The notes beneath the pieces were generated by a model that worked only from the letters and a program-made list of their open reading frames with translations, was not told the origin of the DNA and ran no database searches. Positions 19,189-27,835 of a stretch of 31,177 nt of DNA are shown one piece after another (within the stretch, counting starts at the first letter, position 1; each line of letters starts with the position of its first letter). Source of the DNA: a virus (lineage: Duplodnaviria > Heunggongvirae > Uroviricota > Caudoviricetes); the IMG/VR virus record IMGVR_UViG_2713896907_000007, positions 1 through 31,177 of that record. One strand, 5' to 3'. The position numbers and the translations under genes were made by a program.

Positions 19189-19361
19189 TGTCAGGAGTCC
19201 TGAATAGTGATTAGAGGAGTCACATGTCGGCATCAGTTTCCCGACGATGCGCATCCTCCGCCATCAGTCCCGGATGGCTTATCACTGACACAACAGCACC
19301 TTAGCGAATCGCAGGGCGCGACTCAGTAGCCTTGCCGTGTATTCATCACGGCGAGGTATTC
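19189..19361. promoter_or_regulatory. Divergent O/P intergenic region, presumed Ogr-dependent late promoters
   Basis: 173-bp gap between divergently transcribed O (minus) and P (plus). P2 has divergent late promoters here. Contains imperfect dyads (TGTCGG-N10-CCGACG at about 19225..19246 and GCCGTG-N7-CACGGC at 19334..19352), but I found no exact TGT-N12-ACA. Confidence 0.4.
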
Positions 19362-21134
19362 ATGACCATCACCACAGACACCACTCTTTTACACGACCCG
19401 CGTCGTCAGGCGGCGCTGCTGTACTGGCAGGGGTTTTCCGTGCCGCAGATTGCCGCCATGTTGCAGATGAAACGCCCGACGGTGCAGAGCTGGAAACAGC
19501 GCGACGGCTGGGACAGCGTTGCCCCCATCAGCCGTGTCGAAATGAGTCTGGAAGCGCGACTGACCCAGCTCATCATCAAACCGCAGAAAACCGGTGGTGA
19601 CTTCAAGGAAATTGACCTGCTCGGACGCCAGATTGAACGACTGGCACGGGTAAACCGCTACAGTCAGACCGGCAACGAGGCAGACCTTAATCCGAACGTC
19701 GCTAACCGCAACAAAGGCGGGCGTCGCAAACCGAAAAAGAATTTTTTCAGTGACGAGGCCATCGAAAAGCTGGAGCAGATTTTCTTTGAGCAGTCTTTCG
19801 ACTATCAGTTGCACTGGTATCGCGCCGGGCTTGAGCACCGCATCCGCGATATCCTGAAATCCCGCCAGATTGGCGCGACGTTTTATTTTTCCCGCGAGGC
19901 GCTGCTGCGTGCCCTGAAAACCGGTCATAACCAGATTTTTCTGTCGGCCAGTAAAACGCAGGCGTATGTGTTCCGCGAATACATCATCGCCTTTGCCCGT
20001 CTGGTTGACGTTGACCTGACCGGTGACCCGATTGTCCTGGGCAATAACGGCGCAAAACTGATTTTTCTCGGCACCAACTCCAACACCGCGCAGAGTCATA
20101 ACGGCGACCTGTACGTCGATGAGATTTTCTGGATCCCGAATTTTCAGGTACTGCGTAAGGTGGCATCAGGTATGGCCTCACAGAGTCACCTGCGCTCGAC
20201 CTATTTCTCCACCCCGTCCACGCTGGCGCACGACGCCTACCCGTTCTGGTCGGGTGAACTGTTTAACCGGGGACGCGCCAGCGCCGCCGAACGCGTGGAA
20301 ATCGACGTCAGTCATAACGCCCTTGCCGGTGGGCTTCTCTGTGCGGACGGCCAGTGGCGACAGATTGTCACCATTGAGGACGCCCTGAAAGGCGGCTGCA
20401 CGCTGTTCGACATTGAGCAGCTCAAACGCGAAAACAGCGCCGACGATTTTAAAAACCTGTTCATGTGTGAATTTGTTGACGACAAGGCATCGGTGTTCCC
20501 GTTCGAGGAGCTGCAACGCTGCATGGTCGACACGCTGGAAGAATGGGAAGACTATGCGCCGTTTGCCGCCAATCCGTTCGGCTCCCGCCCGGTATGGATT
20601 GGTTACGACCCGTCACACCGTGGCGACAGCGCCGGATGCGTGGTACTGGCACCGCCGGTGGTGGCCGGTGGCAAATTCAGAATACTTGAGCGTCACCAGT
20701 GGAAAGGCATGGACTTTGCCACCCAGGCGGAATCCATCCGCAAACTCACCGAAAAATACAACGTCGAATACATCGGTATTGATGCCACCGGCCTCGGTGT
20801 CGGCGTGTTCCAGCTCGTGCGCTCGTTCTATCCCGCCGCGCGTGATATCCGCTACACGCCGGAAATGAAAACCGCAATGGTGCTCAAGGCAAAAGACGTT
20901 ATCCGCCGTGGCTGTCTGGAATACGACGTCAGCGCCACCGACATCACCAGCTCGTTTATGGCTATCCGCAAGACCATGACCAGCAGCGGACGCAGCGCCA
21001 CCTATGAGGCCAGCCGCAGCGAGGAAGCCAGCCACGCCGACCTCGCCTGGGCGACCATGCACGCCCTGTTAAATGAGCCACTCACCGCCGGTATCAGCAC
21101 CCCGCTGACATCCACCATTCTGGAGTTTTACTGA
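19362..21134 (+). CDS. P: Terminase large subunit P (590 aa)
   Basis: ORF 19332..21134 begins at a TTG; the ATG at 19362 (MTITTDTTLLHDPRRQ...) is preceded by GAGGT and gives about 590 aa like P2 gpP. Confidence 0.9.
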   Translation: MTITTDTTLLHDPRRQAALLYWQGFSVPQIAAMLQMKRPTVQSWKQRDGWDSVAPISRVEMSLEARLTQLIIKPQKTGGDFKEIDLLGRQIERLARVNRYSQTGNEADLNPNVANRNKGGRRKPKKNFFSDEAIEKLEQIFFEQSFDYQLHWYRAGLEHRIRDILKSRQIGATFYFSREALLRALKTGHNQIFLSASKTQAYVFREYIIAFARLVDVDLTGDPIVLGNNGAKLIFLGTNSNTAQSHNGDLYVDEIFWIPNFQVLRKVASGMASQSHLRSTYFSTPSTLAHDAYPFWSGELFNRGRASAAERVEIDVSHNALAGGLLCADGQWRQIVTIEDALKGGCTLFDIEQLKRENSADDFKNLFMCEFVDDKASVFPFEELQRCMVDTLEEWEDYAPFAANPFGSRPVWIGYDPSHRGDSAGCVVLAPPVVAGGKFRILERHQWKGMDFATQAESIRKLTEKYNVEYIGIDATGLGVGVFQLVRSFYPAARDIRYTPEMKTAMVLKAKDVIRRGCLEYDVSATDITSSFMAIRKTMTSSGRSATYEASRSEEASHADLAWATMHALLNEPLTAGISTPLTSTILEFY

Positions 21135-22168
21135 TGAGCAAGAAAAAAGGGAAAACACCGCAACCTGCGGCAAAAAAAATGACCGCCAGCGCCCCGAAAA
21201 TGGAGGCATTCACCTTTGGTGAGCCGGTGCCGGTGCTCGACCGCCGTGACATTCTGGATTACGTCGAATGTATCAGTAACGGCAGATGGTATGAGCCGCC
21301 GGTCAGCTTTACCGGTCTGGCAAAAAGCCTGCGTGCTGCCGTACATCACAGCTCACCGATTTACGTCAAACGTAATATTCTGGCTTCAACGTTTATCCCG
21401 CACCCGTGGCTGTCCCAGCAGGATTTCAGCCGCTTTGTGCTGGATTTTCTGGTGTTCGGTAATGCGTTTCTGGAAAAGCGTTACAGCACCACCGGCAAGG
21501 TCATCAGACTGGAAACCTCACCGGCAAAATATACCCGCCGTGGTGTGGAAGAGGATGTTTACTGGTGGGTGCCGTCCTTCAACGAGCCGACAGCCTTCGC
21601 GCCCGGTTCCGTGTTTCACCTGCTGGAGCCGGATATTAATCAGGAGCTGTACGGCCTGCCGGAATATCTCAGCGCCCTTAACTCTGCCTGGCTGAATGAG
21701 TCAGCCACGCTGTTCCGCCGCAAGTATTACGAAAACGGCGCGCATGCCGGATACATCATGTACGTCACCGATGCCGTGCAGGACCGCAACGATATCGAAA
21801 TGCTTCGCGAAAACATGGTGAAGTCGAAAGGCCGCAATAACTTTAAAAACCTGTTTCTCTATGCCCCACAGGGGAAAGCCGACGGCATTAAAATTATCCC
21901 GCTCAGTGAAGTGGCGACGAAGGACGATTTTTTTAATATCAAAAAAGCCAGCGCCGCTGACCTGCTGGATGCGCACCGCATCCCCTTTCAGTTGATGGGC
22001 GGCAAGCCAGAGAACGTCGGGTCGCTGGGTGATATTGAGAAAGTGGCAAAGGTCTTTGTCCGCAATGAGCTTATCCCGTTACAGGACAGGATTCGGGAAA
22101 TAAACGGCTGGCTCGGTCAGGAGGTCATCCGCTTTAAAAACTACTCACTGGACACTGACAACGGCTGA
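21134..22168 (+). CDS. Q: Portal protein Q (344 aa)
   Basis: 344-aa ORF whose start overlaps the P stop; size and position next to cos match P2 gpQ. Confidence 0.92.
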   Translation: MSKKKGKTPQPAAKKMTASAPKMEAFTFGEPVPVLDRRDILDYVECISNGRWYEPPVSFTGLAKSLRAAVHHSSPIYVKRNILASTFIPHPWLSQQDFSRFVLDFLVFGNAFLEKRYSTTGKVIRLETSPAKYTRRGVEEDVYWWVPSFNEPTAFAPGSVFHLLEPDINQELYGLPEYLSALNSAWLNESATLFRRKYYENGAHAGYIMYVTDAVQDRNDIEMLRENMVKSKGRNNFKNLFLYAPQGKADGIKIIPLSEVATKDDFFNIKKASAADLLDAHRIPFQLMGGKPENVGSLGDIEKVAKVFVRNELIPLQDRIREINGWLGQEVIRFKNYSLDTDNG

Positions 22169-22195: not shown

Positions 22196-22337
22196 ACACC
22201 CCGTCAGCACGCCCTCACACGCTCACCTCCGCGCAAAACACCCCGCAGACAAACCAACACCCCGGCACACAATCTAAACGCCATCACGACGCGCTCAAAC
22301 GCTGAAAAAATAAAATCAGCACCACTGCCAGCGCGCA

Positions 22338-22356
22338 GTGCTTTCCCCGCCTCGCC
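22338..22356. other. cos: cos cohesive-end site (19 nt)
   Basis: GTGCTTTCCCCGCCTCGCC is the exact reverse complement of GGCGAGGCGGGGAAAGCAC, which I recall as the P2 19-nt cohesive end; it lies about 170 bp past the Q stop in a C/A-rich tract, as in P2. Confidence 0.75.
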
Positions 22357-22512
22357 CGCCCGCTTCATGGGGCGGTTTTAATGCAGTTGCAATACCGCTT
22401 TTGAGCCACGCCAGTCTTGGCGGACGCACGGCCAGAACATGTAACTCCGGCACATGCAAAACCATGCACATATTGCATGCACAGATAAAAACGGGGATAT
22501 CACAGAAAAAGC

Positions 22513-22543
22513 ACAAAAAAAACCGGCATTCATGATGCCGGTT
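22513..22543 (-). terminator. Intrinsic terminator for leftward transcripts leaving the cargo island (possibly bidirectional)
   Basis: 9-bp stem AACCGGCAT/ATGCCGGTT (22521..22529 and 22535..22543) with 5-nt loop; on the minus strand it is followed by a run of eight T (complement of 22515..22522). Confidence 0.65.
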
Positions 22544-22681
22544 CTGATCAATTTTTATAGTTGTCACTGGCCGCGCAATGCACCAATCACACTGTTGAGG
22601 CACGTACTGACAACAATTAGCAGAAAAATCGTTGTCCACGGACTTTCATAAATGTGAGATAACTTCTTGATATAGATCATT

Positions 22682-22813
22682 TTATTTATTCATTCTGATG
22701 TGATTTAACAGGTATTTTATAACGACCATAAGCTCATCTTTACTGGCTTGTTCAACCATTTTTTCAGTGTAACTGTCCACCTCGCGAGAGCTCAGGTCGT
22801 TATTTAAGGCCAT
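22682..22813 (-). CDS. Small hypothetical protein (43 aa from the SD-preceded Met; ORF could extend to 22963)
   Basis: ORF 22682..22963 overlaps the start of the opposite-strand ORF at 22875; the internal Met at 22813 has an AGAGG SD about 9 nt upstream. Start is uncertain and the protein may not be real. Confidence 0.3.
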   Translation of the reverse strand: MALNNDLSSREVDSYTEKMVEQASKDELMVVIKYLLNHIRMNK

Positions 22814-22874
22814 TACAGTTAGCCTCTTTGCCCAGTCGGCATAAGGGTCTTTAATTGATGAAAGGGAACTATGC

Positions 22875-23312
22875 ATGTCCAAAAATCTCGAATTATTCAA
22901 CCAACAGACGGCAGAAATCTTTGCGGTGCTATGGGATAACTTTCCTGTACCACAAGTCATCACCTACAAAAAATTTAACGCCGCGTTACCTGATGACTAC
23001 TTTGACCAACTTAACTCACCAGAAATGAAAGCACTGAATCAGTTGCGTAGTGTGGTTGATGGCACATTCACTTTCCTAAGCGAAAACGGCTATATTCTGT
23101 ACGGAACAGACCATCAGACCGGTTTTCATGATGTGCGCCTGACCGAGAAAGCACTCGCGGTGCTCAACAAAAAACCCGAAGCACTTGGCGGTAATGAAAC
23201 GATGGGTGATAAAATTATCAGTGCAGTAAAAGACGGAACTCCAGGTGTAATTGCTGGAGCAGTGACAAACCTGTTGACTCTTGGCGTTAATTTTGTGACG
23301 TCAGCTTCATAG
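22875..23312 (+). CDS. Hypothetical 145-aa protein with hydrophobic Gly/Ala-rich C-terminal segment; unknown cargo gene
   Basis: ORF in the cos-A cargo island, convergent with the RT operon; C-terminus DGTPGVIAGAVTNLLTLGVNFV looks like a membrane helix. No recognisable catalytic motif. Confidence 0.5.
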   Translation: MSKNLELFNQQTAEIFAVLWDNFPVPQVITYKKFNAALPDDYFDQLNSPEMKALNQLRSVVDGTFTFLSENGYILYGTDHQTGFHDVRLTEKALAVLNKKPEALGGNETMGDKIISAVKDGTPGVIAGAVTNLLTLGVNFVTSAS

Positions 23313-23338
23313 CTAACTACTTTCTGAGGTTTCTAATC

Positions 23339-23381
23339 AACGCCGCCTGCATCGAAAGTAAATTCCTGCACTTGCGGCGTT
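23339..23381. terminator. Hairpin between convergent genes, possible bidirectional terminator
   Basis: 8-bp arms AACGCCGC (23339..23346) and GCGGCGTT (23374..23381) around a 27-nt loop, between the 145-aa ORF stop (23312) and the RT stop (23436). Weak: large loop, no clean T-run. Confidence 0.35.
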
Positions 23382-23435
23382 ACTAACGCCAAGTCATTTT
23401 AATTATTGATGCTTTTATGCAATACATTCAATATG

Positions 23436-24386
23436 TTAATTTGCAGTATTAGCCTTTAAAGTAAGCACCTTCGATTTGTAACGTTGCTCAATCACTCCCA
23501 TTGAATGCAAACGGCCAAAGAGCTTTTTGGCAATGATTGTTTCTCTCGCATTTTCGGCGTCTTTAATTATTTTCCAATAATCTATTTCCCTAGCCATCAA
23601 AAAATGCTGCTCATTCCTAACTTTTAAAGCATTACCGAATACAATAACTCCAGTTACCAACTTAGGCTTATCTCTGGCATATAATTTTGTTTTCGTTGGG
23701 TGTATAACATGTCCATGCTTATTAACGATCTTACGAATTACAGCGCAAAACAATCGATTTACGTTACTACCTGAAAAAGTGAGATCATCAACATAAACAG
23801 TCATGTTAACTCGTAACTTTTGGCAAAGTTGATATATTTCACCAAACATTCTTGAATTTGCAAAATATGCCAACGGCATACTGATGCGACTACCTGTTGG
23901 TAATCGGTCATGACAAGTACATATGTGGGACAAAACATCAGCAACATCAGATGACATTTTCATCACCGAAAAGAAAAAAGAAAATATCATCCCTCTTGTA
24001 GTTGATGGAAAAAAAGCTTTAATATCTGTTGTCATCATCTTTTCATTATTAAGATGAGCTTTAGCATTCGTCACATTAGAGCACTTCTTCTTCCCCGAGT
24101 GCAGATATTCTGGCAAAGCAATCCGTGATAACAAACTTGCAATTCGTGTATGTACAAGTTCTAGTTTTTCTAAAGGCTTTTGTATTTTTCGTGCTTTTCC
24201 TTTTTTAGAAAGTTGCTCAAAAACGGAATAGTTTCCTTCATCTTTTCTCAAAGAGTATAATTCTTCAAGACTAACACAAAGCAAATTCGCCAGTTTTCTT
24301 TTACTTTTGAGTTTGTAAAATGGCGAATCCATTATGTCATAAGATTTATTTTTAGTATTAACCTTAAGCTTTTTCCGTTTTTTCAT
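23436..24386 (-). CDS. Reverse transcriptase, retron-type (316 aa)
   Basis: Motifs seen in translation: NAKAH (NAxxH, aa 107-111), TDIKAFFPS (motif A Asp), LPTGSRISMPLA (motif B region), YVDD (motif C, aa 198-201, DNA 23784..23795) and KLVTGVIV (VTG, aa 244-246). Size and motif order resemble retron RTs such as Ec86 as I recall them. AT-rich. Confidence 0.85.
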   Translation of the reverse strand: MKKRKKLKVNTKNKSYDIMDSPFYKLKSKRKLANLLCVSLEELYSLRKDEGNYSVFEQLSKKGKARKIQKPLEKLELVHTRIASLLSRIALPEYLHSGKKKCSNVTNAKAHLNNEKMMTTDIKAFFPSTTRGMIFSFFFSVMKMSSDVADVLSHICTCHDRLPTGSRISMPLAYFANSRMFGEIYQLCQKLRVNMTVYVDDLTFSGSNVNRLFCAVIRKIVNKHGHVIHPTKTKLYARDKPKLVTGVIVFGNALKVRNEQHFLMAREIDYWKIIKDAENARETIIAKKLFGRLHSMGVIEQRYKSKVLTLKANTAN

Positions 24387-24684
24387 TTTTATTACTTACC
24401 CACTCCAGAACATCCAGAACTTTACCGGCTAAATTTAAACGCAATCGCTTAGACAAACGGCCTTGCGTGCCTAATGATTCCGAAAAGAATACTAAAGAGG
24501 ATACTGGTATGTCGAAATGGGAGGCGTAACGCTCTAAGACTTCAATCGACGGTGACCAAACTCCGCTTTCAAGCGATACTATTTTGTCTTTTGGAATACC
24601 TAAAGATGAAGATAACTCAACTATTGATTCTTTATGGTATTGCCTTATTAAACGAAGGGCTTTATGTAACATAGGCAACTCCAT
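24364..24684 (-). CDS. XRE-family helix-turn-helix protein (106 aa), co-operonic with the RT
   Basis: LRLIRQYHKESIVELSSSLGIPKDKIVSLESG fits a Cro/C1-type HTH; its 3' end overlaps the RT start by 23 nt, implying translational coupling. Confidence 0.75.
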   Translation of the reverse strand: MELPMLHKALRLIRQYHKESIVELSSSLGIPKDKIVSLESGVWSPSIEVLERYASHFDIPVSSLVFFSESLGTQGRLSKRLRLNLAGKVLDVLEWVSNKNEKTEKA

Positions 24685-24708
24685 GCTATTGAAACTAGGG
24701 AGGACGCA

Positions 24709-24864
24709 TTACTCACCACCCCCTTCTAAGTAGTCCAGTGCTCGAGTGACTAAATCAAACAGTCTAATACCCCATTTGAATAATTCCCAAGCATAACCAG
24801 CCCTCTTTTTCAGGTTTGACTTGTTCTGCGCCTGCTGTTCGTTGGTTAATTTATCATTCTTCAT
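24709..24864 (-). CDS. Small hypothetical protein (51 aa) at the head of the HTH-RT operon
   Basis: ATG at 24864 is preceded by a strong SD AAGGAG with a 6-nt spacer; it ends 24 nt before the HTH start. The longer ORF 24709..25122 upstream of this Met runs through hairpin-rich DNA and is probably not coding. Confidence 0.45.
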   Translation of the reverse strand: MKNDKLTNEQQAQNKSNLKKRAGYAWELFKWGIRLFDLVTRALDYLEGGGE

Positions 24865-25100
24865 GATTTGCTCCTTATGCCCATAGTGTGCAAACGGTAT
24901 GTCTGCTCCAACACTATGGTTCGCCCTCATAAGGATGAGATTGAACAGCACTAGCTCCCTGCTCCACGAACCCTTTGTCGCCCAAAGGGTTCGAATTCCC
25001 ATACGCCATACCACCTGGTCCTGTGACTCTTGTCGCTGGCAGGGGCGTTGCGCGGGGTAAACGGTAGAAAGTGTTAACTTTCCACGGGTAAAAAATACCC
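24865..25100 (-). ncRNA. Candidate structured non-coding RNA (possible retron msr/msd) upstream of the RT operon
   Basis: Non-coding stretch with several hairpins: 9-bp stem 24881..24889/24911..24919; 11-bp stem CGAACCCTTTG/CAAAGGGTTCG 24967..24993 with 5-nt loop; 6-bp stem 25067..25082; 5-bp stem 25086..25100. A retron RT needs an adjacent msr/msd RNA. Boundaries and a1/a2 repeats not identified. Confidence 0.25.
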
Positions 25101-25281
25101 AATTGATGGCGATGTATCTCACTAACTAACCAATAATTGCATCATAACAAGTAAACCGTTGTATTTGATCTTTCTATATATAATATTTTTTCATATAAAA
25201 CCAAACATTAACAACAAAGAAGAATAACACATATTAAAGCGATATACGATATACGTTCATTACATTGAATTTTAAAGTGTT
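25101..25281 (-). promoter_or_regulatory. AT-rich intergenic region between A and the RT cassette, presumed cassette promoter
   Basis: About 180 bp of very AT-rich DNA containing a tandem GATATAC GATATAC near 25241..25254; only weak -35/-10 candidates on the minus strand (TTGTTA at 25150..25145). Confidence 0.3.
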
Positions 25282-27570
25282 TTATATGAAAAATGACACG
25301 CCATCTTGAAACCCGAACCACTCATTAGCAACCAGATACGTGAATTTTTTCCCGCCATAATTTACGGTTGCCCCACGCGCCAGCGCCTCAAGCTCCCATC
25401 GCTGCGGCCTGATACCGTTCTGAGCAAGGTCAACGCGGATACGGGTAATTTGCATTCGTTCCGACCGGGTCAGTCTGGCCGATGGTGCCATTTCATACTG
25501 TTTTAACGGGCTTCCGTTTCTCTGCTGACGATTTGGTGTTCTCAGCCCGTGTTTTAATGCGTCCCTGAGCGCCCTCACGACCTCCGGGTCATTCCATTCG
25601 ATAACACCGTCATCAACCAGATTAAGCACTGCTGCGGCGTGCTCAGAAGGTGTGGGAGCCGGTAACGAAGTATCACCACCGGAGAGCTTTCCACAGTTAT
25701 TGACAGGACTCCGAGGCGCGGCGATGCCGCTTTTTAAAGTCAAAGGCTCAACGACCGGCACTTTCGGAACAATGCGCCAGTCCGTCGTTCTGGTGATATG
25801 AATATGACGCGCGCCGAGATGCGGCGCGTAAATGCCGACCACTCTCTCGACTTCTTCCTCGTACTCGTTAACTTCATCCGACGGACTACGGGCGACCCTG
25901 ACAGTCTGACAATCGCGCGGGACATTTGCCCCACCCTGCGCGCTGATATACAGCGCAAAATCGCCACTGTCTGCGGCAGCGCGTGCAGCCTCGACGCGTT
26001 CGTCAAACTCATCAGCAATGCTGACGCCGCGAGGTAATTTGCGTAGTTCACGGTAAGCCCCCATTGTCGGCAGGCCAACCGTTTTAAATTGCGGAATGCG
26101 CCACGTTGACGCCCATGCGGTAACAGCCGCGGCAGTGTCTTTCAGCGGCCTGCCGGTATCGTTATCGAGCTGACCATCCAGTGCATAGCCGTCGATGTTT
26201 TTTGAAATGTATTTCGCGATATACCCCGCAGCACCGCCCCGGTTAAGGTGTTTTGCCTGAAAACGGTTTCGCGCGGCTCCTCTTTCGTCGCCATCCTCTT
26301 TGAGCGCATAGCGACGCATGATTTCGATAATCTGGTTACGCTGGCGCGGATTACAAAAAAGCATCATATGCCAGTGCGGCGTTCCGTCGTGGTGTGGCTC
26401 GACGACACGCAAACCGTAGACCTGTAAATCATTATCCTTGAATGCCGTGCGCATCAGGCTCCAGATACGGCAGAGATAACGCTGCGCATCCTTTGGATTA
26501 AATGCCTCATCGTTCCAGCCGTGATTTAGCTGGACGGTTTTACTTTCGCCTTTTCTGACCTGACGTGTCGGGTGATACTTTGACGGCGCGGTCAGCGTGA
26601 TAAACATCCCCACATCACCCTCTGCTGCGGCGTAACGCTCAATACCAGCAATGGTGTTCATCAGCTCCATCCGGCGAATTTCAGGATTAGAAATACTGCC
26701 CATCACCTTACTGATAAGGTCGATGCGCTCGCCGGTTTCCCTGTTTTCAAGGTCACACGATTTAAGAAATTCCAGATTTGCCTGGCGGCGCGCACGCACA
26801 TCACGAATGGCATGTTTACTGGCATAAGGAGAACGGTCTTTATTGACCTCCCCGACAGCTATCAGTAACGCCTCATGCCAGCGCATACGCTGGCCTTTAA
26901 GCTGATGAGTCCACCACTCATCGTTAAACAGGCGGGCAATGGCAGAATATGCCTGCCTCGTGGTCATCTGTCCTTTACGGTATTTTTTCCAGTAGAGCGG
27001 GGAAATATTGAAAGCACGTGCAGCGCCAGCAACATGACCATAGAGGTGAGCCTGCGCCTCATCCGTAAACAGCGATTCTTTTTCGCCATGTGCATCAACC
27101 CAGGTATCGCAGAGTTCCTCATACATCATGAAAAGCTGCGATGAGATACGGGCAGCAAACTTTTTCAGCTCCTTGTCATTCATTCCCGGCAGGCGCGCAT
27201 AGTGGTCACGCTCTGCCAGAAACAGCAACGACGCGTCGGTGTTCATTTCATGGCGCTGATTCACACGCTCAATGCGCGGCCATAAACGACGCTGAAAAGT
27301 GGATGTGAGGAAATAAAACCCGTGCACCGGGCTTTTATTGCGCCGGATGTAGTCATAACGTGAAGTAAACAGCGAGCGCAAAAAGTAAGGCAGGCGGTTA
27401 ATCGTGGATAAAACACCTTGCACCTGACGCATCTCGTCACGTGTAAGGGGTCTTTCGCGCCCGACAGCCTCGCGTGGCGCGTTCCATGCATAAGCACCGG
27501 TAAACGTCTTACCGGTGCCTGCGGCAAATGCTGACGGAGGGACAAAACGCCCGGAGGCTTTAACGGCCAT
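25282..27570 (-). CDS. A: Replication initiation protein A (rolling-circle endonuclease, about 762 aa)
   Basis: ORF 25282..27612 trimmed to MAVKASGRFVPPSAFAAGTGKTF..., which avoids overlap with the upstream gene and gives a length close to P2 gpA (761 aa). Confidence 0.9.
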   Translation of the reverse strand: MAVKASGRFVPPSAFAAGTGKTFTGAYAWNAPREAVGRERPLTRDEMRQVQGVLSTINRLPYFLRSLFTSRYDYIRRNKSPVHGFYFLTSTFQRRLWPRIERVNQRHEMNTDASLLFLAERDHYARLPGMNDKELKKFAARISSQLFMMYEELCDTWVDAHGEKESLFTDEAQAHLYGHVAGAARAFNISPLYWKKYRKGQMTTRQAYSAIARLFNDEWWTHQLKGQRMRWHEALLIAVGEVNKDRSPYASKHAIRDVRARRQANLEFLKSCDLENRETGERIDLISKVMGSISNPEIRRMELMNTIAGIERYAAAEGDVGMFITLTAPSKYHPTRQVRKGESKTVQLNHGWNDEAFNPKDAQRYLCRIWSLMRTAFKDNDLQVYGLRVVEPHHDGTPHWHMMLFCNPRQRNQIIEIMRRYALKEDGDERGAARNRFQAKHLNRGGAAGYIAKYISKNIDGYALDGQLDNDTGRPLKDTAAAVTAWASTWRIPQFKTVGLPTMGAYRELRKLPRGVSIADEFDERVEAARAAADSGDFALYISAQGGANVPRDCQTVRVARSPSDEVNEYEEEVERVVGIYAPHLGARHIHITRTTDWRIVPKVPVVEPLTLKSGIAAPRSPVNNCGKLSGGDTSLPAPTPSEHAAAVLNLVDDGVIEWNDPEVVRALRDALKHGLRTPNRQQRNGSPLKQYEMAPSARLTRSERMQITRIRVDLAQNGIRPQRWELEALARGATVNYGGKKFTYLVANEWFGFQDGVSFFI

Positions 27571-27835
27571 ATGAGCCAAAAGCCTCTGAACAACGCCTGC
27601 TGAGTTGCTCAACCTGCGCGTTTAAATCAGCAAAAGACTTTGCGCTTCCGGTCAGAATATCGTGATGCATCAGGCCGGAAACGAGCTGGCTTAATTTCGG
27701 GTAATAACCAACCACCGCCAGCCATTCCTGACCGGCGTTTTTACCGCTTTCCGCTCTCTTTTTCTCGTGGAGAATAAACTGAAAGCTGTCACTGGTAACG
27801 ACATAACGTTCGCCAATTTCAATACGAATGCTCAT
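27560..27835 (-). CDS. Hypothetical protein (91 aa), P2 orf83-like
   Basis: 91-aa ORF directly upstream of A in the early operon. Confidence 0.75.
   Translation of the reverse strand: MSIRIEIGERYVVTSDSFQFILHEKKRAESGKNAGQEWLAVVGYYPKLSQLVSGLMHHDILTGSAKSFADLNAQVEQLSRRCSEAFGSYGR

Follow-up and report, generated by a model that had tools for sequence, protein, structure and literature searches.

The window analysed here, 31,177 nucleotides (nt) of a Caudoviricetes record (IMGVR_UViG_2713896907_000007), carries on its minus strand an operon that ends with the gene of a retron reverse transcriptase (RT), and the hairpin-rich stretch in front of this operon is very probably the RNA that belongs to it: minus-strand positions 25122-24865 would form the 5', non-coding portion of the hybrid RNA (hyRNA) that belongs to a type VI retron of the Vpa2/Eco12 lineage. 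A sequence-only reading had placed a candidate msr/msd RNA, cognate to the RT and encoded on the same strand, at positions 24865-25100, and this view is now supported by homology to the Vpa2 hyRNA and by a matching architecture. To the complete explanation, which combines the identity of the RNA, its architecture and a mechanism of the Vpa2 type, we assign a probability of roughly 0.78. The call was correct and is not new, as RNAs of this kind were first described in 2025; the window holds a new, or possibly an already tested, Escherichia coli member of the kind described in 2025-2026.

Type VI retrons are defined by their RT clade, by a helix-turn-helix (HTH) protein of 91-110 amino acids (aa) encoded directly upstream of or overlapping the RT gene, and by an upstream small protein (SP) (Mestre et al. 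2020). By its gene content, the operon in the window, which encodes an SP of 51 aa, a Cro/C1-type HTH protein and the RT in this order, is a type VI retron. The RT gene (23436..24386, minus strand; 316 aa) matches the PADLOC model RT_VI (1.4e-105, 350.5 bits) over profile positions 1-278 of 279, with RT_III-A as the second-best PADLOC model at 3.4e-45, and the protein also matches Pfam RVT_1 and has a YVDD active site. Together with YVDD, the RT sequence shows NAKAH and VTG, and all three are significant motifs in retron RTs. The HTH protein (24364..24684, minus strand; PADLOC HTH_VI, 7.7e-31) has 102-106 aa, and its gene overlaps the RT start by 23 nt. Its true start is probably the second ATG at 24672 (102 aa), because a GGAG lies 7 nt upstream, homologues begin there, and RefSeq gives 102 aa; the first ATG (24684) overlaps the Shine-Dalgarno sequence of the second. 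The SP gene (24709..24864, minus strand), with an AAGGAG 7 nt upstream, lies inside the hyRNA, and its product is the predicted toxic effector. An open reading frame (ORF) of 47-55 aa is found at this position in all relatives, and the encoded proteins have in common an N-terminal ..QQ.. motif, a basic middle part, a C-terminal helix that is hydrophobic, and an acidic tail resembling EGGDE.

The assignment to the Vpa2/Eco12 lineage is based on a set of 131 related loci that were gathered by an RT-alignment scan of viral and metagenome contigs and by exact-protein look-ups; a scan of genome contigs with a single RT sequence gave only two distant loci. One member of this set, L126 from V. parahaemolyticus, has an RT that is 55% identical to the window RT, and its SP, which begins with MSNNTQRDQQVNIIKPTKREKRQKQFKRFLKALSW, equals the SP of Retron-Vpa2 as printed in Table S3 of 10.64898/2026.04.27.721009. 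Because of this match, L126 is identified as the Vpa2 locus, and its SP also contains the residues K15, I39, F43 and F45 that were mutated by Zhang et al. When enterobacterial SPs were combined in a profile with the window SP at its head and this was aligned with a profile headed by the Vpa2 SP, hhalign gave a probability of 98.6% (E = 8.9e-16). The non-coding region behaves likewise: an nhmmer profile of 18 enterobacterial copies, built without Vpa2, found the region upstream of the Vpa2 operon at E = 2.4e-13, and the same profile detected the region in 51 loci, including some with RTs down to ~46% identical, while a broader profile detected it in 76 of 132 sequences (the 131 loci and the window). 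The Vpa2 RNA, folded alike, has the same plan. All four components, i.e. RNA, SP, HTH protein and RT, have homologues in Retron-Vpa2. By homology of both SP and RNA, the window retron belongs to the Vpa2/Eco12 lineage, and it may be Retron-Eco12 itself, or Eco12 may be among the 83-96% identical E. coli variants; with regard to this question, the cluster listing did not show WP_069548583.1. Membership in the Sen3/cl2075 lineage was considered and rejected, as the Sen3 SP is unrelated to that of the window.

Retron-Vpa2 produces an abundant hyRNA of ~470 nt, in which an msr-msd-like arm is followed by an arm that sequesters the ribosome-binding site (RBS) together with the start codon, and by the SP coding sequence (10.1101/2025.10.22.683967). 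The 3' end of this hyRNA anneals to the first arm (10.1101/2025.10.22.683967). The same three-arm fold is present in the window RNA, with an msr-msd arm, an RBS-sequestering arm, an SP coding arm, and a 3' end that is annealed to the first arm. The RNA is predicted to extend from about 25122-25134 to about 24690 and would then have a length of ~440 nt if its 3' boundary is placed just after segment Y (see below), which is near the ~470 nt of Vpa2. The earlier suspicion that the RNA might overlap with the 51-aa ORF was thus justified, and the limit at 24865 needs to be revised, since the RNA does not end there but reaches ~24690. The minimum free energy (MFE) structure of the 450-nt RNA 25134-24685 has -155.6 kcal/mol (z = -4.7) and contains the elements A, B, M, C, D, R, X, S and T, which are described in the following.

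All pairing and covariation counts refer to a MAFFT alignment of 31 distinct loci that was made from sequence only. On the minus strand, the RNA begins with two msr-like hairpins, namely hairpin A (25085..25101; UGGGUA-UUUUU-UACCCG), with 98.4% of the cells paired and changes on both sides in 4 of 6 pairs, and hairpin B (25066..25083; GGAAAGU-UAAC-ACUUUCU), with 99.1% of the cells paired and 4 of 7 pairs compensatory. They are followed by the long, imperfect stem-loop M (24998..25056), a candidate msd, in which the basal stem is conserved, and sequence and length vary in the interior. The variable segment between CGCAACGCC and GGUAUGGCG is the exception to the strong conservation of the stretch, and the equivalents of M (62-100 nt with flanks) nevertheless fold into one long imperfect stem-loop in 30 of the 30 relatives analysed. 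With flanks, the M equivalent has 72 nt in the window and 65 nt in Vpa2, where the published core of the multicopy single-stranded DNA (msDNA) has 63 nt. Hairpin C (24967..24993) has 11 base pairs (bp), of which 9 are compensatory, and its loop together with the closing pair reads GGGCGAC; by homology, it would represent the 5' stem-loop of the full-length msDNA.

Downstream of hairpin C, three helices connect the core of the RNA with the SP gene and the sequence behind it. Segment X (24955..24966, minus strand; UGGAG..GGGAG) forms a helix with segment Y, which lies behind the SP stop codon (CUCCC at 24702-24698 and UUUCA at 24694-24690, minus strand), with 92.9% and 97.4% of the cells paired in the two parts of the helix, the higher value belonging to CUCCC. 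The 5' arm of helix S (UGCUGUUC, 24943..24950, minus strand) forms 8 bp with SP codons 9-11 (GAACAGCA, 24840-24833), with 100% of the cells paired and 4 of 8 pairs compensatory, and in helix T the 3' segment T3' (24703..24707, minus strand; GCGUC) pairs with GGCGC (24832-24828) in the SP codons (98.7% paired). The riboregulator arm (24872..24935, minus strand) consists of helix R, an internal loop, and hairpin D (24919-24911/24889-24881). Helix R, with 8 bp between UCCUUAUG (24935-24928) and CAUAAGGA (24879-24872) on the minus strand, covers most of the SP Shine-Dalgarno sequence, and the SP start codon is contained only in a weak 5-bp hairpin of the MFE structure. The two helices of this arm, numbered 11 and 12, have 83.5% and 84.9% of the cells paired, and compensatory changes occur in 6 of 8 and in 7 of 9 pairs, respectively. 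Two direct repeats on the minus strand complete the picture: R1 (GGGCGAC, 24983-24977) lies in the loop of hairpin C, and its motif is found in 30 of 31 loci, and R2 (GGGCGAA, 24926-24920) is carried by the riboregulator arm in its internal loop and is conserved across the family.

The covariation argues for this structure. RNAalifold, applied to the alignment of the 31 loci, found A, B, D, X, S and T unaided, and 26 of the 43 pairs were compensatory. In the complete structure of 80 pairs, 88.5% of the cells can pair, compared to 41.6-51.0% when the partners are slid by 1-3 columns, and compensatory changes, i.e. changes on both sides, occur in 52 pairs. The covariation score was 0.356, compared to 0.186 in shuffled alignments (reached by 0 of 500) and 0.09-0.15 with slid partners. 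For the loci that are most distant, MAFFT does not align hairpin C, the leader and the riboregulator correctly. The percentages of paired cells are therefore lower for helices 1, 5, 7 and 11, and the misalignment has lowered the counts, not raised them. For this reason, register-free duplex tests were used beside the MAFFT counts, and the alignment was not edited by hand. In these tests, the cognate arms of each of the four long-range helices paired better than arms permuted among loci, and none of the 10,000 permutations per helix reached the cognate value. Helix S occurs in six Watson-Crick versions (UGCUGUUC:GAACAGCA, UGCUGGUU:AACCAGCA, UGCUGAUC:GAUCAGCA, UGUUGGUC:GACCAACA, UGUUGGAC:GUCCAACA and UGUUGAUC:GAUCAACA), and in distant loci with a different SP it is replaced at the same place by CUGCCAAAAA:UUUUUGGCAG.

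The alignment also reveals the strand. There are 285 G.U cells versus 73 A.C cells, and 88.5% of the cells can pair on the minus strand versus 79.9% if the complement were the RNA. The RNA strand is therefore the strand of the RT gene, and the excess of G.U over A.C indicates selection on RNA pairing and not on protein-binding DNA. In the 3' two-fifths of the stretch, the nucleotide conservation is above that of each of the three coding sequences (SP, HTH and RT), and the same holds for the part from hairpin C to the AUG. In the latter part, L017 is 97% identical to the window and its RT gene 77%, and for L122 the corresponding values are 80% and 66%. L017 and its relatives appear as mosaic modules, in which the non-coding RNA and the SP are 92-97% identical to the window, the HTH gene 84%, and the RT gene 77%, which suggests either recombination inside the operon or very uneven constraint. 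Within SP codons 9-13 (24828-24840), the conserved QQ motif occupies the place of the 3' arm of helix S, and the codons that follow it fall into helix T. Close relatives do not differ in these codons, even at synonymous sites. Because helices S and T lie there and synonymous sites do not vary, part of what looks like conservation of the SP protein is attributable to constraint on the RNA. In distant loci with a different SP, the helix is kept with other codons.

The hairpins on which the sequence-only reading had been built were all recovered at their coordinates by an inverted-repeat scan and by direct reading. The scan gave 24967-24977/24983-24993 (11 bp, 100% complementary, 5-nt loop), 24881-24889/24911-24919 (9 bp, 100% complementary) and 25064-25072/25077-25085 (9 nt, 89% complementary), and GGGTA/TACCC at 25100-25096/25090-25086 was read from the sequence. 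Folding of the minus strand, which had been recommended as a check, was better than chance: positions 24866-25130 gave -99.8 kcal/mol, compared to -75.9 +/- 4.7 kcal/mol in 200 dinucleotide shuffles (z = -5.1, reached by 0 of 200), and the plus strand folded less well (z = -3.7). The stretch had been regarded as non-coding, and the comparison with relatives agrees with this. ORFs of 137, 62 and 53 aa cross it mechanically and are not conserved. The possibility that the 137-aa and 62-aa ORFs encode proteins is poorly supported and was rejected in view of indels and stop codons in relatives: a 1-nt indel occurs in the loop of the first hairpin, the variable stem-loop changes in length by numbers of nt that three does not divide, and in many relatives stop codons interrupt the reading frame where it extends upstream of the 51-aa ORF.

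For the 5' end, a transcription start is predicted near 25131-25134, ~10 nt upstream of the leader arm a1 (see below). A candidate -10 hexamer, TATGAT (25141..25146, minus strand), was recognized by eye 18 nt upstream of a1, with a weak -35 hexamer ATCAAA, and a consensus promoter scan reported no minus-strand promoter upstream of the RNA. Near-consensus sigma-70 promoters with a similar spacing to a1 are found in two divergent relatives, TTGACT-17-TACAAT in L026 (17 nt to a1) and TTGCTA-16-TATAAT in L001 (16 nt to a1).

The terminal inverted repeats a1 and a2 of retron RNAs had not been recognized by eye, nor had the priming guanosine. We found a covarying a1/a2-like pair; for the priming guanosine, only candidates emerged. 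The a1-like 5' arm GUGAGAU (25116..25122, minus strand) pairs with the a2-like arm AUCUCAU (24935..24941, minus strand), and the duplex is found in the same register in 31 of 31 loci, with several compensatory versions (AUGGGAU:AUCCCAU, GAAGGAU:AUCCUUU, GAGAG:CUCUC and GAGAA:UUCUC, and GGGAG:CUCCC in distant loci) and with cognate arms that paired better than permuted arms (0/10000). This helix would close the msr-msd-like domain, yet it crosses helices X and S, and because of this crossing it represents either a pseudoknot or an alternative conformer; we did not see such a crossing helix spelled out in the text of the Vpa2 preprint (10.1101/2025.10.22.683967). By homology to the Vpa2 msDNA, the msDNA's 5' end would lie in hairpin C and hence adjoin helix X:Y rather than a2. 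The invariant leader guanosines at 25110 and 25100 are candidates for priming only and are uninformative, guanosines beyond 24690 are further candidates, and neither preprint names the priming guanosine (10.1101/2025.10.22.683967; 10.64898/2026.04.27.721009). The leader also contains the near-invariant motif UCGCC (25108..25112, minus strand), which is complementary to both GGCGA repeats and is the same sequence as the msDNA part that is proposed to open the riboregulator. For the pairing of UCGCC with the repeats, only one possible compensatory event was seen (UCGUC in Vpa2, together with GGACGAA twice), and L063 and L064 are exceptions. As a speculative idea, to which we give little weight, the hyRNA could be a two-state switch with the leader helix as a closed 'retron' conformer or pseudoknot and with an involvement of UCGCC. 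If this were true, the leader would imitate the msDNA or compete with it from within the RNA, or would be a signal for RT loading. In comparison with canonical retrons, the priming geometry would then be permuted, with the RNA 3' end as the place of the arm facing the msd 3' end.

How the system may work can be deduced from Vpa2. The Vpa2 msDNA, which was mapped experimentally on the hyRNA, consists of a 63-nt core over the long stem-loop and a 23-nt 5' stem-loop (10.1101/2025.10.22.683967). It is undetectable at rest and appears when the HTH protein is mutated or lambda Red is expressed; it is necessary for SP translation, and sufficient when supplied in trans (10.1101/2025.10.22.683967). A 7-nt direct repeat in the msd loop and the riboregulator loop has been proposed to mediate the hybridization of msDNA and RNA, and the HTH protein is required for viability (10.1101/2025.10.22.683967). 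Retron-Eco12 from E. coli defends against lambda vir and has no basal msDNA (10.1101/2025.10.22.683967). By analogy, a single transcript of ~440 nt would comprise the msr-msd-like domain (A, B, M and C), the riboregulator arm and the SP coding sequence, with the latter folded back on the core by three long-range helices. RT, HTH protein and hyRNA would form a complex in which the HTH protein holds reverse transcription low. Upon infection, phage recombination proteins and RecBCD inhibition would permit the accumulation of an msDNA of ~85-95 nt that is copied from M and hairpin C, and the 5' loop of this msDNA (…GTCGCCC…) could hybridize with GGGCGA in the riboregulator loop and thereby free the RBS. 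The SP would then be translated, resulting in growth arrest and abortive infection. By homology, the msDNA probably accumulates only upon a phage trigger and then derepresses SP translation. For this entire path from the trigger to the toxin, we consider the chances only somewhat better than even.

Several points weigh against our interpretation. All evidence on the locus comes from its sequence. A covariance-model search for the RNA had been recommended, and no curated retron msr family in Rfam matches: at the gathering score, no family matched in the window, and at E <= 10 the sole match within 24300-25400 was a chance hit to a long non-coding RNA. The aligned sequences are related, and as the shuffle and permutation controls keep the phylogenetic relatedness, their outcomes are counts and not probabilities. 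Two covarying candidates compete for the a1/a2 role, the leader helix 25122-25116:24941-24935 and the helix between X (24966-24955) and Y (24702-24690), and they cross each other. Behind segment Y, no G that could serve in priming is conserved at a constant distance. R1 and R2 have only 6 nt in common (GGGCGA), compared to 7 in Vpa2. Finally, Retron-Sen3, a second characterized type VI retron, works differently, so that type VI retrons do not all share one mechanism.

Retron-Sen3, which represents the cl2075 SP lineage, has constitutive single-stranded DNA (ssDNA) and is controlled post-translationally (10.64898/2026.04.27.721009). If the window retron worked in this way, the same RNA would be present, ssDNA and SP would be produced constitutively, the HTH protein would be a protein antitoxin, RecBCD inhibition would trigger the release of the toxin, and the RNA fold would serve RT templating and not translational control. 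Sen3 is an enterobacterial type VI retron that behaves exactly so, the HTH protein is needed for viability also in Vpa2, and the HTH and SP genes are adjacent and co-conserved at the window locus and in relatives. However, the Sen3 SP (MKYETLRNTVATLQ...) is unrelated to the window SP, to which the SP family of Vpa2 is matched at 98.6%, no basal msDNA was obtained from Eco12, the representative from E. coli, and RBS sequestration and both repeats are conserved and covarying in the window lineage. We therefore regard a Sen3-like control as unlikely, albeit as the main competitor. The paired RBS, the lack of baseline msDNA of an E. coli type VI retron, and the failure to pinpoint a priming G in the window RNA would also fit a cis-regulatory leader that controls the expression of the SP, and of HTH and RT, with no reverse transcription at the locus. 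This is improbable, as the YVDD motif of the RT is intact, the homologous Vpa2 region gives rise to an msDNA that depends on the RT and maps to the M stem-loop and hairpin C, and M is variable in sequence and conserved in shape, as msds typically are, and would have no evident function in a leader alone.

The sequence-only reading had itself named the observation that would speak against it, namely that the hairpins are the terminator of gene A plus ordinary promoter or operator elements, and a version of this idea is that these are DNA-level elements, with sites for the HTH protein. The stretch does contain palindromes and is located between gpA and an operon with an HTH regulator. However, no intrinsic terminator was predicted within 24300-25400, and no run of T follows any of the hairpins, so that the terminator is not borne out. 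The compensatory changes keep G.U on one strand only (the 285 versus 73 cells mentioned above), and the long-range helices span 260-270 nt, into and beyond the SP gene. This explanation is the least credible of all and would be highly surprising. The type VI retron RNA with a Vpa2-like mechanism hence remains the explanation that we prefer.

A comparison with known systems shows what is shared and what is special. With Vpa2, the window has in common the order of non-coding RNA, SP, HTH and RT, the homologous RNA and its fold, the SP family, the RBS in a stem, two repeats in equivalent loops, a 3' end that pairs just after the msd hairpin, and a long stem-loop of similar size. Differences are the 55% identity of the RTs, the repeats (GGGCGA(C/A) versus GGACGAA in Vpa2), the length of the SP (51 aa versus 55 aa), and the location of the window locus in a P2-like prophage. 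Eco12 is likewise a type VI retron from E. coli with its own native promoter. Sen3 resembles the window in having a structured non-coding RNA no more than ~280 nt away from the SP start, a small 5' stem-loop that is conserved, a long internal stem-loop with a variable center, an SP RBS in a stem, a long-range pairing to a segment after the SP stop, and an SP coding sequence under RNA structural selection, but its SP is unrelated, its variable stem-loop is much longer (~166 nt), its ssDNA species of 112 and 145 nt are constitutive, and its control is post-translational. With canonical retrons such as Retron-Eco1/Ec86, the shared features are an RNA upstream of the RT gene on the same strand, small 5' stem-loops followed by a long template stem-loop, and candidate terminal inverted repeats that would close the domain. 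Unlike these, the window RNA has no Rfam msr match and an embedded effector gene; by analogy with its type, the msDNA would be scarce at rest and an activator, not an antitoxin, and the X:Y partner arm at the RNA 3' end would create a topology unlike a1-G...a2. Toehold riboregulators and the leaders of type I toxin-antitoxin systems are similar in that the Shine-Dalgarno sequence of a small toxin is held in a stem and an accessible loop could nucleate pairing in trans, but the proposed trans-activator is here an ssDNA that is reverse-transcribed from the same RNA, not a small RNA.

An unusual retron design, in which one RNA is both toxin mRNA and template for reverse transcription and in which the msDNA is the activator, is hereby placed in a P2-like prophage. 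In RefSeq, the three proteins of the operon are annotated and the RNA is absent; genome annotation thus overlooks the RNA entirely and labels the predicted toxin a 'hypothetical protein'. The coordinates and covarying helices can be used directly for the design of experiments in E. coli. The extraction of msDNA from an unchallenged lysogen, which had been proposed as an experimental check, will probably be negative, since the msDNAs of Eco12 and Vpa2 are undetectable without a phage trigger (10.1101/2025.10.22.683967), and such a negative result would not refute the retron RNA.

As to the genomic setting, the order on the minus strand is gene A, ~160 bp of AT-rich DNA, the structured stretch, the 51-aa ORF, the HTH gene, and the RT gene. 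Gene A is of the P2 type (25282-27612, minus strand; Phage_GPA, 6e-123), and on the far side of the locus a portal gene (Phage_portal, 21134-22168) and a terminase gene (19332-21134) are found. The gpA-gpQ hotspot of P2-like phages carries defence systems, with retrons among them (PMC9122126), and judging from these neighbours, the retron is cargo in this hotspot of a P2-like prophage of E. coli. The 1.9-kb retron segment is present in 100 of 5,426 complete E. coli genomes (~2%), every time on the chromosome, and 10 copies are at least 99% identical, 18 are 95-99% identical, and 71 are 80-90% identical. Loci with ~84% identity occur in Peduovirus P22H1 and in the Klebsiella P2-like phage ST147-VIM1phi7.1.

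The region between the RT and portal genes (22200-23430) contains an ORF of 145 aa (22875-23312, plus strand) and one of 93 aa (22682-22963, minus strand), for which searches of Pfam, NCBIfam and PADLOC gave no match. They are probably separate cargo, because the genes at this position differ in relatives. On the other side, a perfect 15-nt inverted repeat (TTTTTCATATAAAAC / GTTTTATATGAAAAA) at 25187-25201 and 25279-25293, with arms 77 nt apart, spans the AT-rich spacer together with the stop codon at the end of gene A; this repeat could be the edge of the hotspot cassette or a regulatory element. At an Aeromonas-type locus (L129/L130), a related type VI retron has a ParA-like gene on one side and a Hok/Gef toxin gene on the other, and these neighbours suggest that it resides on a plasmid and not in a P2-like prophage.

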